From positions 96,911-160,910 of the IMG/VR virus record IMGVR_UViG_3300020048_000023: DNA of 64,000 nt; one strand, written 5' to 3'. Below the pieces are notes generated by a model. That model was not told the origin of the DNA. It saw only the letters and a list, made by a program, of their open reading frames with translations, and did no database searches. Shown one piece after another: positions 27,828-36,858 of the stretch. A program made the position numbers and the translations under genes. Positions within the stretch are counted from its first letter, which is position 1, and each line of letters opens with the position of its first letter. This DNA comes from a virus.

Positions 27828-28406
27828 ATGGACAAGTATAAAAATACCGAACGCTGGGCTGAACGCTGGGAAAAATGGCTCGCCGACGGCGGAATCACCG
27901 AAGGAATAGATTGTGATATCAAAGTTAAAATACCAGCCGACTTAGGCGTTGGTGTTACAATGCAGAGCGAAGGTCACACGCTCATATCAACCCGCGAAAT
28001 GGGCGGGAAAATGATGAAAGATTATATGAAAACGGTTACGTTGAAAGTGAGCACTTGGCGCGGAATAAGCGGCGGTGCTGTTCACTATTACGGCAAGCTG
28101 GAATTTCATAGCGTTGATTTTGCACGTGAAGGTAGCGACAGCCGCTTATCTTCCTGTGGTCACGGCATCCCTGACTATCTGGAAAGCGGCAAATTCGAGC
28201 TCACACGCCCTGTAACACAGGCTGAGATCGACGCAAACCCAAAACTATGGGTAGCCTATCACGCTGGAAGCAGAACTGAAAGGTTCGACAAAGTTCAGGA
28301 TGTTATTGACAGAGGCACAGAAATCTTTGACCAGTGGTTCGAAAAGGGCTGGCTTCTGGTGCTGGAAAAGACTTGGGTATCCAAAAAAGAAACCTTGCGA
28401 AAATAA
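27828..28406 (+). CDS. HYY-motif paralogue family protein
   Basis: GAVHYY...ELTRPVT..E...W..Y..GS.T.RF. Confidence 0.8.
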   Translation: MDKYKNTERWAERWEKWLADGGITEGIDCDIKVKIPADLGVGVTMQSEGHTLISTREMGGKMMKDYMKTVTLKVSTWRGISGGAVHYYGKLEFHSVDFAREGSDSRLSSCGHGIPDYLESGKFELTRPVTQAEIDANPKLWVAYHAGSRTERFDKVQDVIDRGTEIFDQWFEKGWLLVLEKTWVSKKETLRK

Positions 28407-28459
28407 ATTTGGTTAGTTCAACTATTAGTTGTATATTTGCACCCTAAACTTTAAACCAT

Positions 28460-29038
28460 ATGAAAACAACATTCAGACCAGATGGATCGATTCAGATCAC
28501 AATAGAAACCCTCGAAGAAAGAATCATTCTCGAAAATATGTACAAACTTAAAGGAAACGGCAGCACACTTACATTAGTAAGCGTAGACGATTACTTGGTG
28601 GCATCACCACAGACAATCATACCGCCACTGTTCAACAACCAGACCTTGGGTAGCAAATACGGCGTGGTGTTCACACCAGAGCACGTTAAAAACATATTGG
28701 AGTTCCTTACCCAAGGTTCAAAGTTAGGCGCCGTTAAATACGTTAAGGAAGTCACAGGCTTAGGCTTGAAAGAAGCCAAAGACTTGGTTGACGAGTTTCC
28801 TGTTATTCTCAACCAACAGGAGTTGAACAAGCAGCACCAAAAGGATTTGGATAATGAAAAAAACGTCATTCACACCCACATATTCACTCCTAAAGAGGTT
28901 ATGGTTATAGTCGGGTATCTTGACAGGAAAGAAAGATTGATGGCTGTTAGGTACATCAAGGAAGCCAAAGGAATAAGCGTGGAAACAGCCAAAATAGAAT
29001 TTGATAAATTCTTGGCTATGAACACACACATACTTTAA
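28460..29038 (+). CDS. protein with two ribosomal L7/L12 C-terminal-like domains
   Basis: KLGAVKYVKEVTGLGLKEAKDLVD and degenerate RLMAVRYIKEAKGISVETAKIEFD. Confidence 0.8.
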   Translation: MKTTFRPDGSIQITIETLEERIILENMYKLKGNGSTLTLVSVDDYLVASPQTIIPPLFNNQTLGSKYGVVFTPEHVKNILEFLTQGSKLGAVKYVKEVTGLGLKEAKDLVDEFPVILNQQELNKQHQKDLDNEKNVIHTHIFTPKEVMVIVGYLDRKERLMAVRYIKEAKGISVETAKIEFDKFLAMNTHIL

Positions 29039-31753: not shown

Positions 31754-31804
31754 ATTTGGTGAATCCAAATCTTTGTTGTATATTTGCATTCTAAACCTGA
31801 CACA

Positions 31805-32335
31805 ATGGACGTATTCCCCAAATTCATAATTGAAACCGACAGCGAAAAGGGCGACTGCCTGAGCATCGCCAGAGTTACATGCCATAACCAAATCGTTGTC
31901 GATAAAACAAAGGTTAAAGGCGGCGGCTGGTTCCTAATGACCAGAGAAACCAATACCAAACGAAGACTCTCACTGGCTAAAGCTAAAGCCCTGTCAATAA
32001 TCAAATGGAAAATAATTCTCCGTAACAACGGCGGCATAACTGGTGTGTATTCTCACCCAGAACTAAGAAACCTGAAACATAACTGCGGCTTCTGCGAACG
32101 CTGGTTATCACCCATTCAAAATTTTGGGGAATCTGGATGCGACTGTGCCAAATGTGAGTTCGCCAAAGCTATGGGCTCCCAATGTAACGAAGAGGATAAT
32201 GTAAATAACCTGTTCGACCAGTGGGGCAACGAAAGGGGCGGTACGGAAAAAGCACTAGAACTAACACAGCAAATTCTCGACCTGATCAAAGCAATACCAG
32301 TACCAACCAGAAAACCCAAACAGGATGAAACCTAA
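31805..32335 (+). CDS. Cys-rich protein, paralogue of 32325 with extra N-terminus
   Basis: LAKAKALSI.KW...HNCGFCERW...ESGCDC..CEFAKA. Confidence 0.8.
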   Translation: MDVFPKFIIETDSEKGDCLSIARVTCHNQIVVDKTKVKGGGWFLMTRETNTKRRLSLAKAKALSIIKWKIILRNNGGITGVYSHPELRNLKHNCGFCERWLSPIQNFGESGCDCAKCEFAKAMGSQCNEEDNVNNLFDQWGNERGGTEKALELTQQILDLIKAIPVPTRKPKQDET

Positions 32336-32672
32336 CATAACATTAGCCAAAGCTAAAAAGCTGTCCATACTGAAATGGGAACTTATCGTAGCCAATAAAG
32401 GCGTCTTTAGCCCAATAGACAAAAGAAACCCAGCTCTCAGAAATATTAAACATAACTGCGGGTTCTGCGAACGCTGGCGTACCGAAGAAGATGGGTTTGA
32501 AGAGTCTGGCTGCGACTGCTCACAGTGTGAGTTTGCTAAAGCCGTGGGTGCCGATTGTAATAAGGACGAAAGCCTGTTCGATCGCTGGTGCAGCGATGAA
32601 CCGTTCGGCGGGGAACCCACAAAACTGGCTAAGGAAATACTGGAAATAATAAAGGAAATACCAACAAAATGA
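32325..32672 (+). CDS. Cys-rich protein (tandem paralogue)
   Basis: Same motifs as 31805. Confidence 0.8.
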   Translation: MKPNITLAKAKKLSILKWELIVANKGVFSPIDKRNPALRNIKHNCGFCERWRTEEDGFEESGCDCSQCEFAKAVGADCNKDESLFDRWCSDEPFGGEPTKLAKEILEIIKEIPTK

Positions 32673-32946: not shown

Positions 32947-33299
32947 TATAGAAATATAATATGCACCGAGAAGACAGGAAGTTATGTAAAATAGTTATAA
33001 AGGGGTGCTCTTCTGAATACAATAATTGGATAGGAGTGAATTAAATATAGGACATAGGGAAGGATTGAATGCAGGGACGGAAATGGCAGACTGATGATTT
33101 GGCGGGCGTAGCGAGCGGGGGGTGAATTCTAAAAAAACTTGTACCCTGTCCGCATTCACGCAAACTATTTCGTAAAATTTTTGGTAAGTTCCTGTTCCCC
33201 CGATTGCTCAAACAAACGCCCCAATAAAATATGTAAAAAAATACTGTAGATACTGAATTCTTGTGTCGTTTGTAATATTTATTACTAAACACTACAAGT

Positions 33300-33578
33300 A
33301 TGTCAGGAATAATGCAAGCGGTCGCCGACACCATTTCTCAGAAGCCCGAGATCGGCATATTCGGTTCGATGGCAGGAGTGGCGCTATCGCCGATTGCAAT
33401 CATATCATTGGTCAGTGCTGTACTGGGTTTAATAGTCACGGTGATTACCTTAGTGATAAAGATCATGGATATGGTAGAGAAGGTCAGGAAGAAGAAGCGA
33501 GGGGCTATCGAGAGCGACGAAGTATTCATTGACAACAAGAGGTACAAGCGGGTGTTGGACGAAGAAGAGTCAGAATAG
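33300..33578 (+). CDS. small membrane protein, holin-like topology
   Basis: Long hydrophobic segment then a charged tail; TATTTATT motif upstream. Confidence 0.6.
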   Translation: MSGIMQAVADTISQKPEIGIFGSMAGVALSPIAIISLVSAVLGLIVTVITLVIKIMDMVEKVRKKKRGAIESDEVFIDNKRYKRVLDEEESE

Positions 33579-33752
33579 CTGAAACCCGCATTGGCGTAAC
33601 GGACACAGAGCATCGCCACCAATAGAATTGATGGCTTGACGCCCCCCAACGGGGGCGTTTCTCATATGAATTCGTCTGTAATGGGGAATTTGACCTGAAT
33701 TCTGGCGTAAAATCCGAACCGAAAAATAGCTGAAACCCGCATTGGCGTAACG
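33574..33752. repeat. 28-bp exact direct repeat (third partial copy at 61736-61755)
   Basis: AATAGCTGAAACCCGCATTGGCGTAACG at 33574 and 33725. Confidence 0.9.
33638..33662 (+). terminator. GC hairpin terminator
   Basis: GACGCCCCC-CAAC-GGGGGCGTT followed by TC. Confidence 0.6.
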
Positions 33753-33774
33753 CCTTCAGAAGGTTTTATATGAA

Positions 33775-33845
33775 TACAAAAAGGAAACGGCGCCGTCAGG
33801 ATTAACTGGGGCGCCGAATTCAATTGTTATGGCAGCAAATTTACG
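33775..33845 (-). ncRNA. candidate tiny RNA
   Basis: -7 box TATATTTG on minus at 33849-33856 (no clear -33), CGGCGCC hairpin and T-tail; 3' end matches the 42646 RNA. Confidence 0.35.
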
Positions 33846-33921
33846 GTACAAATATACGCAATGAATACAGGAAGGGAAGTGTTTTTTGAATTCGGGTGAT
33901 ATTTATTATAAACGAATTCAT

Positions 33922-34347
33922 ATGAAATTTACTAAGATGACTTTAATCAAGACCGTGATAGCTGAATCCAGCATCGAGGATGTGCTGAGCGGCAGCTGGC
34001 AGCAGCAGGCTAATCAGGATATGGACGTTGAATTCTATCGGGATAAGACGGAGTTATTCTGGAAGGAGTTGGAGCAGCTTATATCTGTGCTACGTAATAT
34101 GCCGCCTGAGGATCAGGAAGAGTGGGCTGATTACTACAAGTTCGAGAATGAAATCAAGTACAGGGTATATGAATGGTTGGAGCGTATGGACGTGAACTGG
34201 GTACGCCAGCACATCACAGATGAATTCGTCTATAGATACATTAAGGATTGGAAGTTGGATTCAGGTAACGCCGAGTCGATGTACGAGCTGGCTAATACTG
34301 TGATCCCATACGTGCTAAAGAAATACGTCGGTAAGTCCGAAGTTTAA
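33922..34347 (+). CDS. acidic hypothetical protein
   Basis: Start corrected; TATTTATT motif 14 nt upstream. Confidence 0.75.
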   Translation: MKFTKMTLIKTVIAESSIEDVLSGSWQQQANQDMDVEFYRDKTELFWKELEQLISVLRNMPPEDQEEWADYYKFENEIKYRVYEWLERMDVNWVRQHITDEFVYRYIKDWKLDSGNAESMYELANTVIPYVLKKYVGKSEV

Positions 34348-34659
34348 TCTTTTAAGTTTGAATGCAAAGCCGCCGCTGAGCGGCTTTTTTGTTACCCCAT
34401 ATTTGAAATCCATATAGTATATTCTCCCAGACGGGAGTGGTATGTTTACTTCCTGACGTTGCCTGTCTGAATTCGCGGCTACTTCATCGTCGGTTAAGCC
34501 CAGCAGTGTATTCATATACCTTCTGGGTAAACCAAGGGCTTCAATTAGTTTTGTTTGAAAGTAAGCTATCTCTGCATTCATATCCACGGCATTCGCTGCT
34601 GTATTGAATGCAGCGTTGAATTCTTCCTCGGTAAAATGCGGGTAGATATGATTAGGCAT
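34315..34659 (-). CDS. small protein with portal-like and major-capsid-like peptides
   Basis: EIAYFQTKLIEALGLPRRYM, LLGLTDDEV, LPSGRIYYMDFKYG. Confidence 0.6.
   Translation of the reverse strand: MPNHIYPHFTEEEFNAAFNTAANAVDMNAEIAYFQTKLIEALGLPRRYMNTLLGLTDDEVAANSDRQRQEVNIPLPSGRIYYMDFKYGVTKKPLSGGFAFKLKRLNFGLTDVFL
34366..34390 (+). terminator. intrinsic terminator between convergent genes
   Basis: AAAGCCGC-CGCTGA-GCGGCTTT followed by a T-run. Confidence 0.75.
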
Positions 34660-34921
34660 TTTTAACTATGAATTCGTGTCTGGCTGGCGCCCCATGGCTA
34701 AAGATGGCTAAAGGTTTGCCATTATAGGTTGCCTTCTGAATTTTGCGGGACATATCGTGAGCATTGTCCGTGAGGGATGCGTGCATAGTCCAGATCAGGT
34801 TAATAGCTTCCATTTCGTTCATCACGTTCTTGTAGGTGAAAACGTTCTTGAACTTAACGTCTGGTTTCTTTTCGATGTTATTCACGTGTACTGTGAGGCG
34901 GCGGAAGTTTCTGTGTGTCAT
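34652..34921 (-). CDS. hypothetical protein
   Basis: 89 aa, directly after the minus-strand promoter. Confidence 0.75.
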   Translation of the reverse strand: MTHRNFRRLTVHVNNIEKKPDVKFKNVFTYKNVMNEMEAINLIWTMHASLTDNAHDMSRKIQKATYNGKPLAIFSHGAPARHEFIVKNA

Positions 34922-34939: not shown

Positions 34940-34971
34940 CAAATATAATCAATCAGGTTGAGAAAACCAAA
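34940..34971 (-). promoter_or_regulatory. Minus-strand copy of the Bacteroidota-type promoter driving 34921..34315
   Basis: Reverse complement reads TTTG-GTTTTCTCAACCTGATTGAT-TATATTTG (20-nt spacer); ATG follows at 34921. Confidence 0.8.
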
Positions 34972-35277
34972 TTACTTCGAAAATAATTTTGAGATTTGTA
35001 GCAGGTGCTTGAGTCTGAGCTTGGTTAGCGGGACGTGTTCGCCATTGTCAAGTAGTATTCTAATTACGGTGAACTCCCGTTTGAACTGGGACATATACTT
35101 GAATCGTTCGATCGAGATCATAGACACTTTGCCGCCAGAATATGTATAGGGTAATGGTTTAGCGAAAGCTACAGGGGAATTAAACTGAAATTCCTCGTCG
35201 ACGTGAGCTTTGATCGCCCCGACCAGCTTCAGTCGCATATAGTAATTTACGTCCTTTTTATGTTGATGCCAAACCAT
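34972..35277 (-). CDS. hypothetical protein
   Basis: 101 aa; stop abuts the minus-strand promoter. Confidence 0.65.
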   Translation of the reverse strand: MVWHQHKKDVNYYMRLKLVGAIKAHVDEEFQFNSPVAFAKPLPYTYSGGKVSMISIERFKYMSQFKREFTVIRILLDNGEHVPLTKLRLKHLLQISKLFSK

Positions 35278-36279: not shown

Positions 36280-36858
36280 ATGGAACCAGAAATTTGGAAG
36301 CCAATAGAAGGCTATGAACAATATTACGAAGTATCTACATTTGGTAGAGTGCGGAGTTGTGTCAGAATTATAGTAGCGCAGAATAATGCACGTGTGCATT
36401 ATAAAGGTAAAGTATTGAAGCCTGCTATTAATCGTGATGGATATCAACAAGTGGTATTATCACGTGACAATAAAATGAAAAGTTTTTTTGTACATAGGTT
36501 AGTTGGACAAGCTTTTCTATTAAACCCCGACGATAAAGGCACTATTAACCATAAGGACGGCGTTAAGTCTAACTGTTACGTTGATAATTTGGAATGGGCT
36601 ACTAAGTCAGAACAAACTATTCACGCCTTGGTTAATAATTTACGTACTATGCCAGATGTTTGGGGTGGTGTAACTGGGTCAGATCATTGTGCGGCAAAAG
36701 CTGTATTACAATTCGATAAAAATAAAAATTTTATCAGAGAATTTGGGTCAATAGTGGAAGCCTCAAAAATAACTGGAACAAATCAAAGTTGTATAACGTC
36801 GGTTTGTAGAGGGAGGAAAAAAACTTCAGGCGGATTTATCTGGAAGTATAAATTGTAA
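36280..36858 (+). CDS. NUMOD4-HNH-NUMOD1 homing endonuclease
   Basis: EIWKPIEGYE..YEVS..GRVRS; VHRLV; INHKDG.K.N...NLEW; C-terminal GRKKTSGGFIWKY. Confidence 0.93.
   Translation: MEPEIWKPIEGYEQYYEVSTFGRVRSCVRIIVAQNNARVHYKGKVLKPAINRDGYQQVVLSRDNKMKSFFVHRLVGQAFLLNPDDKGTINHKDGVKSNCYVDNLEWATKSEQTIHALVNNLRTMPDVWGGVTGSDHCAAKAVLQFDKNKNFIREFGSIVEASKITGTNQSCITSVCRGRKKTSGGFIWKYKL

Follow-up and report, generated by a model that had tools for sequence, protein, structure and literature searches.

A small phage protein family with portal-like and capsid-like peptides, and its possible role as a mimic of head proteins

Many defences sense the portal and capsid proteins of phages (bioRxiv 10.64898/2026.01.04.697583). 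One region read in this way is Gol, the most conserved part of the T4 capsid protein gp23; Gol binds EF-Tu and sets off the Lit protease (PMC3014915). A free T4 Gol peptide of 29 residues, 13 of which are critical, suffices for EF-Tu binding and for reading by the defence, and this free peptide activates Lit and does not block it (PMC3014915). A Gol-type activator is defined here as one that binds domains II-III of EF-Tu and enables Lit cleavage. Other sensors, those of the Avs type, are reported to read whole folds, not peptides (bioRxiv 10.64898/2026.01.04.697583). As to the portal, a peptide of T4 gp20 from the clip domain (residues 288-311) binds gp17 and blocks packaging (PMC4493910). In the same protein, the channel loop (350-359), stem helix alpha7 (359-377) and the tunnel loop (374-398) all line the DNA channel, and the tunnel loop helps the portal 12-mer to form (PMC4493910). 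A further system for comparison is DSAD1, a phage accessory protein that counters DSR2, a defence triggered by the tail tube structural protein (PMC11087589). It is like the protein considered below in being a phage accessory protein, and the abstract of that study does not describe it as derived from the tail tube (PMC11087589).

The gene considered here, gene C, encodes a small protein with one portal-like and one capsid-like segment. Its capsid-like segment aligns with the end of the capsid N-arm, where it overlaps the Gol region. However, Gol lies within a full capsid protein, whereas the gene C family consists of separate proteins of 114-145 aa in which the capsid stretch stands beside a portal-like piece. 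On the portal side, only ~35-57 residues of a ~670-aa portal are represented in the family. That a peptide taken from a portal can act alone is shown by gp20 288-311, but this peptide comes from the clip domain, unlike the alpha7 region to which gene C corresponds. A literature search found no published description of portal/capsid-fragment mini-genes of such kind.

Gene C lies in a stretch of 64,000 nucleotides (the window), which is the 3′ 64 kb of a 160,910-bp IMG/VR record rated ~67% complete (Table 1). Its coordinates, strand and 114-aa length, and the peptides quoted from it in a preliminary description of this DNA, were exact when the sequence was read again. Three genes, A, B and C, form a minus-strand cassette with gene C as the last one. 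The stop of gene B and the start of gene C overlap by 8 nt, and gene C is the second, translationally coupled gene of a B-C unit. From the other side, gene D shares its last 33 nt with gene C, and the intrinsic terminator of gene D falls within the gene C coding sequence and is kept in relatives.

Table 1. Positions of gene C, its segments and its neighbours (window coordinates)
Feature	Coordinates	Strand	Description	Basis or match
Gene A	34972..35277	-	101 aa; first in minus-strand cassette	no family match
Promoter motif, Bacteroidota-type	34940..34971	-	TTTG, 20-nt spacer, TAnnTTTG; precedes gene B	pattern search
Gene B	34652..34921	-	89 aa	no family match
Gene C	34315..34659	-	114-aa ORF, ATG start, stop codon included	ORF list, homologues, neighbourhood, dN/dS
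Portal-like segment, residues 22-57	34489..34596	-		Pfam, BLASTP, motif alignment
Capsid-like segment, residues 72-97	34369..34446	-		hhalign, segment profile
C-terminal tail, residues 91-114	34318..34389	-	invariant across members; overlaps gene D terminator and 3′ end	
Intrinsic terminator of gene D	34366..34387	+	8-bp stem, 6-nt loop, T run	terminator scan
Gene D	33922..34347	+	141 aa from conserved ATG; convergent with gene C	

The promoter motif is frequent in this DNA. A pattern search for TTTG-N20-TAnnTTTG, in which the spacer is conserved, found 44 copies in the window against 0.6 expected, and the copy listed in Table 1 is the sole one on the minus strand, the other 43 being on the plus strand. 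This promoter array spans window positions 1491-61387, and each copy stands ahead of a short gene cassette. We take the motif to be akin to the promoters of Bacteroidota hosts, and it is the only pointer to the host. Since it directly precedes gene B, the promoter would drive genes B and C jointly. Gene C had been described as standing under an early-type promoter; the motif is real, but it sits before gene B and serves both genes. It is solely the type of this promoter that suggests early expression of gene C.

The surroundings of gene C are made up of small accessory genes and homing endonuclease genes. At 33300-33578, a 92-aa protein with one transmembrane segment gives weak matches to holin-family PHROGs (E 0.006), and this holin-like gene is kept upstream of gene D in all relatives. 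Two adjacent small paralogues (31784-32335 and 32325-32672) have a Cys-rich motif in common, N-C-G-F-C-E-R-W ... S-G-C-D-C ... C-E-F-A-K-A. An HNH/NUMOD4 homing endonuclease gene at 36280-36858 occurs in some relatives and is missing from others, and two relatives, L003 (3304-4329) and L004, have an additional I-HmuI-like endonuclease gene between gene A and a GP88 gene. GAATTC sites are unevenly placed: 12 of the 20 in the window cluster within 1.55 kb (33124-34675), a region that takes in the holin-like gene, genes D and C and the 3' part of gene B, while their total number in the window is not unusual. GC content between 30 and 38 kb gave no hint of foreign origin.

Homologues of gene C come from metagenomes. 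A search of 5.8 billion proteins returned eight of them (115-145 aa, 40-85% identity), and a profile search of 1.84 billion representative proteins gave two further members, two repetitive junk translations and nothing else, so that the family counts ~11 metagenomic members. No relative of gene C was found in IMG/VR, and the phage collection held no near DNA match and no protein match below E 5. Members have in common an N-terminal MPN..YP, a centre of the form Y-F-Q-x-K-L...P-x-R, the capsid-like motif P-x-(S/T)-G, an invariant tail of 23 aa and the position between genes B and D. Indeed, all homologues with readable contigs lie after gene B and converge on gene D, and gene A is also visible in all of these contigs but a short one. 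Most relatives have a charged helical insert of 31 aa, a coiled-coil spacer, between the two modules, and the clade of the window's copy is without it. An AlphaFold2 model built from the family alignment had a mean pLDDT of 46.7 and no usable fold, and a profile search of PDB sequences gave nothing relevant, the best match being a tubulin-like protein at E 0.08.

Gene C is a real gene under selection. Its pairwise dN/dS of 0.21-0.36 indicates purifying selection, and dN is 3-10 times as high in gene C as in genes B and D. Between these phages, genes B and D are 90-99% identical and gene C 44-85%; gene D is 96-99% identical among relatives. In blastn comparisons, the flanks of gene C align at 86-97% and the gene body (~34389-34609) is without alignment. 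Residues Y33, F34, Q35, K37, L38, P45, R47, G54 and P76 are invariant in the family, and the invariant residues in the otherwise variable middle are those common to the portal motif. The last 24 codons are nearly frozen (pN 0.018). Variation there is mostly synonymous in the frame of gene C, including a swap of Arg codons at two positions just beyond gene D, and this bias argues that the tail is constrained as protein, besides the constraint from the terminator and 3′ end of gene D.

The preliminary description had read the protein as a mosaic of three pieces, namely a gp20-type portal segment, a portal C-terminal helix and a gp23-type capsid motif. The portal-like segment aligns with T4 gp20 ~350-385, which covers the channel loop, stem helix alpha7 and the start of the tunnel loop. 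Portal_T4 (PF07230) is the sole Pfam match of the window's gene C (E 0.041, residues 29-52), and its 13.1 bits fall short of the 22.9-bit cut-off and cover profile positions 284-307 of 433 only; the PHROGs portal family is matched at E 0.13. Neighbouring genes score equally weak matches to unrelated families, so the Portal_T4 match by itself means little. At the family level the likeness is stronger: five of nine members match Portal_T4 (best E 0.0056) and three of nine the PHROG portal family. By BLASTP, the window's protein aligns with the portal of a jumbo phage over residues 22-50 at 34% identity, family members align with related jumbo portals over 25 aa at 44-48%, and one member aligns over 57 aa at 32%. 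Within a stretch of 33 columns, one family member agrees with the jumbo portal in 15, and the T4 portal agrees with the jumbo portal in 9. An hhalign comparison of the gene C and gp20 families gave P 0.0041 over 17 columns. Thus, the gp20-type segment stands for the family by profile ranks and by these Portal_T4 matches, and is weak in the window's copy. The proposed C-terminal helix (LLGLTDDEV...Q.Q), in turn, scored -3.9 bits at its supposed place in the portal and was dropped. Its residues align better when read contiguously with the first portal segment, and the mosaic therefore consists of two pieces, not three.

The capsid-like segment corresponds to about T4 gp23 113-139, the end of the N-arm, where it overlaps the Gol region, and to the same columns in jumbo capsids. 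We take the Gol range of T4 to be ~93/94-122, in which case the segment overlaps its C-terminal part. Met98 of gp23 is located in the N-arm (PMC7136217). Comparison of the gene C family with the gp23 family by hhalign gave P 0.0029 over 26 columns, and family members are 44-53% identical to a capsid protein of the lineage's type across 19-23 aa (BLASTP). With T4 gp23 alone, the capsid motif was not significant by BLASTP, hhalign or profile; the claimed gp23-type motif holds at the family level, against the lineage's type of capsid protein. No family member matched Gp23 (PF07068) at E up to 10, the criterion being a 376-position domain of HK97-like fold with a 24.4-bit cut-off. Because the thresholds of both Portal_T4 and Gp23 are missed, gene C is neither a portal nor a capsid protein; it has 114 aa, against ~520-670 aa for portals.

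Comparison with T4 proteins gives a mixed picture. BLASTP and hhalign against T4 gp20 and gp23 placed the best local matches where they had been claimed, at E 0.04-0.4. With profiles built from 120 homologues each of gp20 and gp23, the window's protein outscored all but 3 of 2,000 shuffles for the portal, while 286 of 2,000 equalled or beat it for the capsid. With the same T4-based portal profile, the window's protein came only 7th among 580 natural 114-aa windows of its genome. Against T4 proteins alone, the portal/capsid claim is no more than suggestive.

The 160,910-bp record holds no portal or capsid gene, and for this reason head proteins of relatives were used. These are complete IMG/VR jumbo phages of 327-365 kb, found through a conserved 746-aa protein with ~60% identity. 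All five that were searched have a Portal_T4 portal (~670 aa) and a Gp23 capsid protein (~563 aa), and gene C is absent from all five. An unbiased test was made with the 2,697 stop-to-stop ORFs (282,223 residues) of one complete relative. By sequence score, the whole-family profile placed the portal 1st and the capsid protein 3rd, although a random 183-aa ORF equalled the portal on domain score. Of 54 column-permuted control profiles, a single one brought the portal into the top five and none the capsid. A profile of the capsid-like segment alone put the Gp23-type capsid 1st with 13.5 bits, the next ORF having 8.2, and the profile of the portal segment put the portal 2nd with 7.6 bits, behind a 64-aa ORF with 9.9 bits. 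Profiles of the N-terminus, the spacer and the tail matched no structural protein among these ORFs. With single sequences, BLASTP had the portal in the top 3 for 3 of 11 family members and the capsid for 4 of 11, against 3 of 111 and 1 of 111 (the latter a true capsid relative) for natural ORFs of the same genome taken as controls. In a language-model feature search, where scores below 0.9 are leads only, the nearest named clusters of the window's protein were Gp23-fragment ones (0.85 and 0.84), and a long variant led to a Portal_T4-fragment cluster (0.76).

These results bear directly on the idea that both likenesses are accidental, in that a proline-terminated amphipathic helix and a beta-strand motif of the form P-x-G resemble head proteins by chance. 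Such an origin is ranked fourth among the explanations and seems quite improbable. Each single comparison is below library-wide significance, the 183-aa and 64-aa ORFs do as well as or better than the portal in their respective comparisons, natural windows have BLASTP scores against the portal similar to those of gene C, and the hypothesis was picked after the sequence had been read. However, the two targets had been named before the search and both came out in the top 3 of 2,697 ORFs, as in none of the 54 permuted controls; their joint probability, estimated from the targets' share of total ORF length, is ~1e-5. The capsid match leads by 5 bits, the feature search is independent and indicates the same two families, and the likeness rises from T4 to the lineage's own type of portal and capsid. 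Taken at the family level, the analysis shows that portal and capsid likenesses in two pieces are non-random, as judged from sequence comparison. For the clade of the window's copy (P0001-P0003), the BLASTP top 10 in the related genome included neither of the two head proteins. The window's copy is the most diverged, with a likeness that is a property of the family and attenuated there. In this sense, the alignment of gene C segments with portal and capsid families that the preliminary description had proposed for checking was obtained for two segments with the relatives' proteins, and the mosaic stands in two of its three resemblances.

Other small ORFs, in this genome and in other phages, carry stretches that resemble head proteins. 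In the genome of gene C, 68.6 kb before the window, a 137-aa ORF (L009:8258-8671, record 28258-28671, plus strand) matches residues 28-96 of the jumbo-lineage capsid, that is, the N-terminal propeptide and N-arm, with 36% identity and E 7e-12. It begins with MPN-x-(I/L)-Y, as gene C does, and its capsid piece stops where the capsid-like piece of gene C starts. In a related jumbo phage (G002), a 116-aa ORF (L062:2732-3079, G002 222732-223079, plus strand) adjoins the capsid gene on the opposite strand and repeats the N-terminal propeptide motif of the capsid protein. Two uncultured megaphages, LR745206 (L014:2120-2593) and LR756502 (L015:2102-2599), have ORFs of 157 and 165 aa with no Pfam or PHROG family match. 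The N-terminus of these megaphage ORFs matches T4 gp23 residues 1-22 (E 0.002), and they end in a P-S-G...Y-x-Y-G motif resembling that of gene C (hhalign probability 50.8%). In LR745206, a T5orf172/MUG113 endonuclease-like gene lies ~280 bp downstream of the mini-ORF.

One explanation in which gene C acts on head proteins themselves is that its peptides dock it onto them, as a handle or modulator of head assembly. The protein would then be loaded in or on the prohead, or would retard the formation of rings or capsomers as a dominant-negative, and the target may be the head of its own phage, whose timing would be affected, or that of a co-infecting relative. What favours this explanation is the 137-aa mini-protein with the capsid N-terminus together with the contribution of the tunnel loop to ring formation. 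The portal piece includes the start of the tunnel loop, which aids 12-mer formation, packaging can be inhibited by a peptide of gp20 (PMC4493910), and the capsid piece corresponds to part of the N-arm (PMC7136217). The 116-aa ORF with the propeptide motif next to a capsid gene and the coiled-coil spacer in most family members point the same way. On the other hand, gene C is far from structural modules, in an accessory cassette behind a host-type promoter, and five complete related phages assemble heads without it. It also evolves much faster than is usual for assembly partners, and the capsid motif that it resembles is virtually invariant in 80 jumbo-lineage capsid proteins (73-100% identical overall). 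The T4 prohead core proteins gp67 and gp68 have no likeness to gene C. A role in head assembly ranks second and is judged somewhat unlikely.

The likeness may also record origin only. Illegitimate recombination, in a region with many homing endonucleases, could have joined portal and capsid pieces, which may now be ordinary secondary-structure elements of a protein whose function is unrelated to head proteins. The homing endonuclease genes that flank the cassette vary between relatives, and the gp23-N-terminus-like mini-ORF of a megaphage stands beside an endonuclease-like gene. The portal gene of another jumbo phage, G004 (L069:1076-4417, 1,113 aa), has an insertion of ~450 aa that matches Intein_splicing weakly (E 6.9e-5). 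The insertion point, position 277/278 of the Portal_T4 profile, precedes the motif resembled by gene C by a few residues, and an intein beside the matched motif suggests that this site is targeted by mobile elements. The strongest constraint on gene C falls on its tail, which resembles no structural protein, and this too speaks for a likeness of origin only. Against such an origin, the invariant residues of the variable middle are the very ones common to the portal motif, and each module matches the single most conserved peptide of its parent and not a random piece. No structural-protein likeness is seen in genes A, B or D, and a decayed head module at this locus is thus rejected. Ranked third, capture without a head-related function is considered unlikely.

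The explanation ranked first of the four, which we favour tentatively and still regard as doubtful, is that gene C is a competitive mimic or decoy of portal and capsid peptides. Gene C would be a working accessory protein with a short helical N-terminus, two peptide modules and an invariant basic-hydrophobic tail. The modules resemble those peptides of the lineage's head proteins that are most conserved, and may be copies of them. Being under a promoter of the host sigma type, the protein would probably be made before the head proteins. Its copied peptides would bind their normal readers, most probably immune sensors of the host or a host factor that such sensors use, and this binding would blunt host recognition of the true portal and capsid proteins. 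Early timing, binding and the decoy effect are all things that we infer for gene C.

Mimicry is preferred because gene C sits in an accessory region, because it changes fast while its motif residues stay conserved, and because Gol has a known role in defence; the other explanations would suit these features no less. Gene C lies behind the sole minus-strand cassette promoter of the window, among accessory genes and homing endonucleases. It is fast-evolving yet selected, and the motif residues are the conserved ones. Its portal and capsid likeness beats permuted controls and natural ORFs. The matching Gol region of gp23 is read by a host defence via EF-Tu (PMC3014915), numerous defences respond to portal and capsid proteins (bioRxiv 10.64898/2026.01.04.697583), and a gp20 peptide can act alone by binding gp17 and blocking packaging (PMC4493910).

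Several points weigh against mimicry. The segments are short (19-57 aa) and each is singly below database-wide significance, and the window's own copy is the weakest, as seen from a BLASTP top 10 without either head protein and the 7th place among 580 windows with the T4-only portal profile. Free Gol activates Lit, and a copy could therefore harm the phage unless it binds without activating. The whole-fold reading reported for Avs sensors (bioRxiv 10.64898/2026.01.04.697583) does not fit short peptides well, and early timing comes from promoter type alone. Moreover, the proteins used for comparison are from relatives at ~60% identity in a conserved protein, which lack gene C. A complex prediction of gene C with Flavobacterium EF-Tu scored 0.00 and counts neither way.

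A bolder version of competitive mimicry, which must be called improbable at present, is that gene C is a chimeric trigger decoy that blinds several structural-protein-sensing defences and belongs to a wider class of fragment genes. As an early protein, it would display in one chain the portal channel region and the capsid Gol/N-arm peptides, which on this view would be the two virion peptides most often read by host sensors. The wider class in giant T4-like phages would include the 137-aa capsid-N-terminus mini-protein and the ORFs of related phages and megaphages described above.

Defences that sense structural proteins are now many, with Lit, CapRel and several Avs families among them. If gene C is indeed a decoy, it would represent a simple and testable escape route, in which a phage copies the peptides that it cannot change instead of mutating essential proteins. 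Alternatively, it may regulate or sabotage head assembly by a route that is new. In either case, gene C is a compact test case, with two modules, a conserved tail and variants with and without the spacer, that can be directly expressed and assayed.
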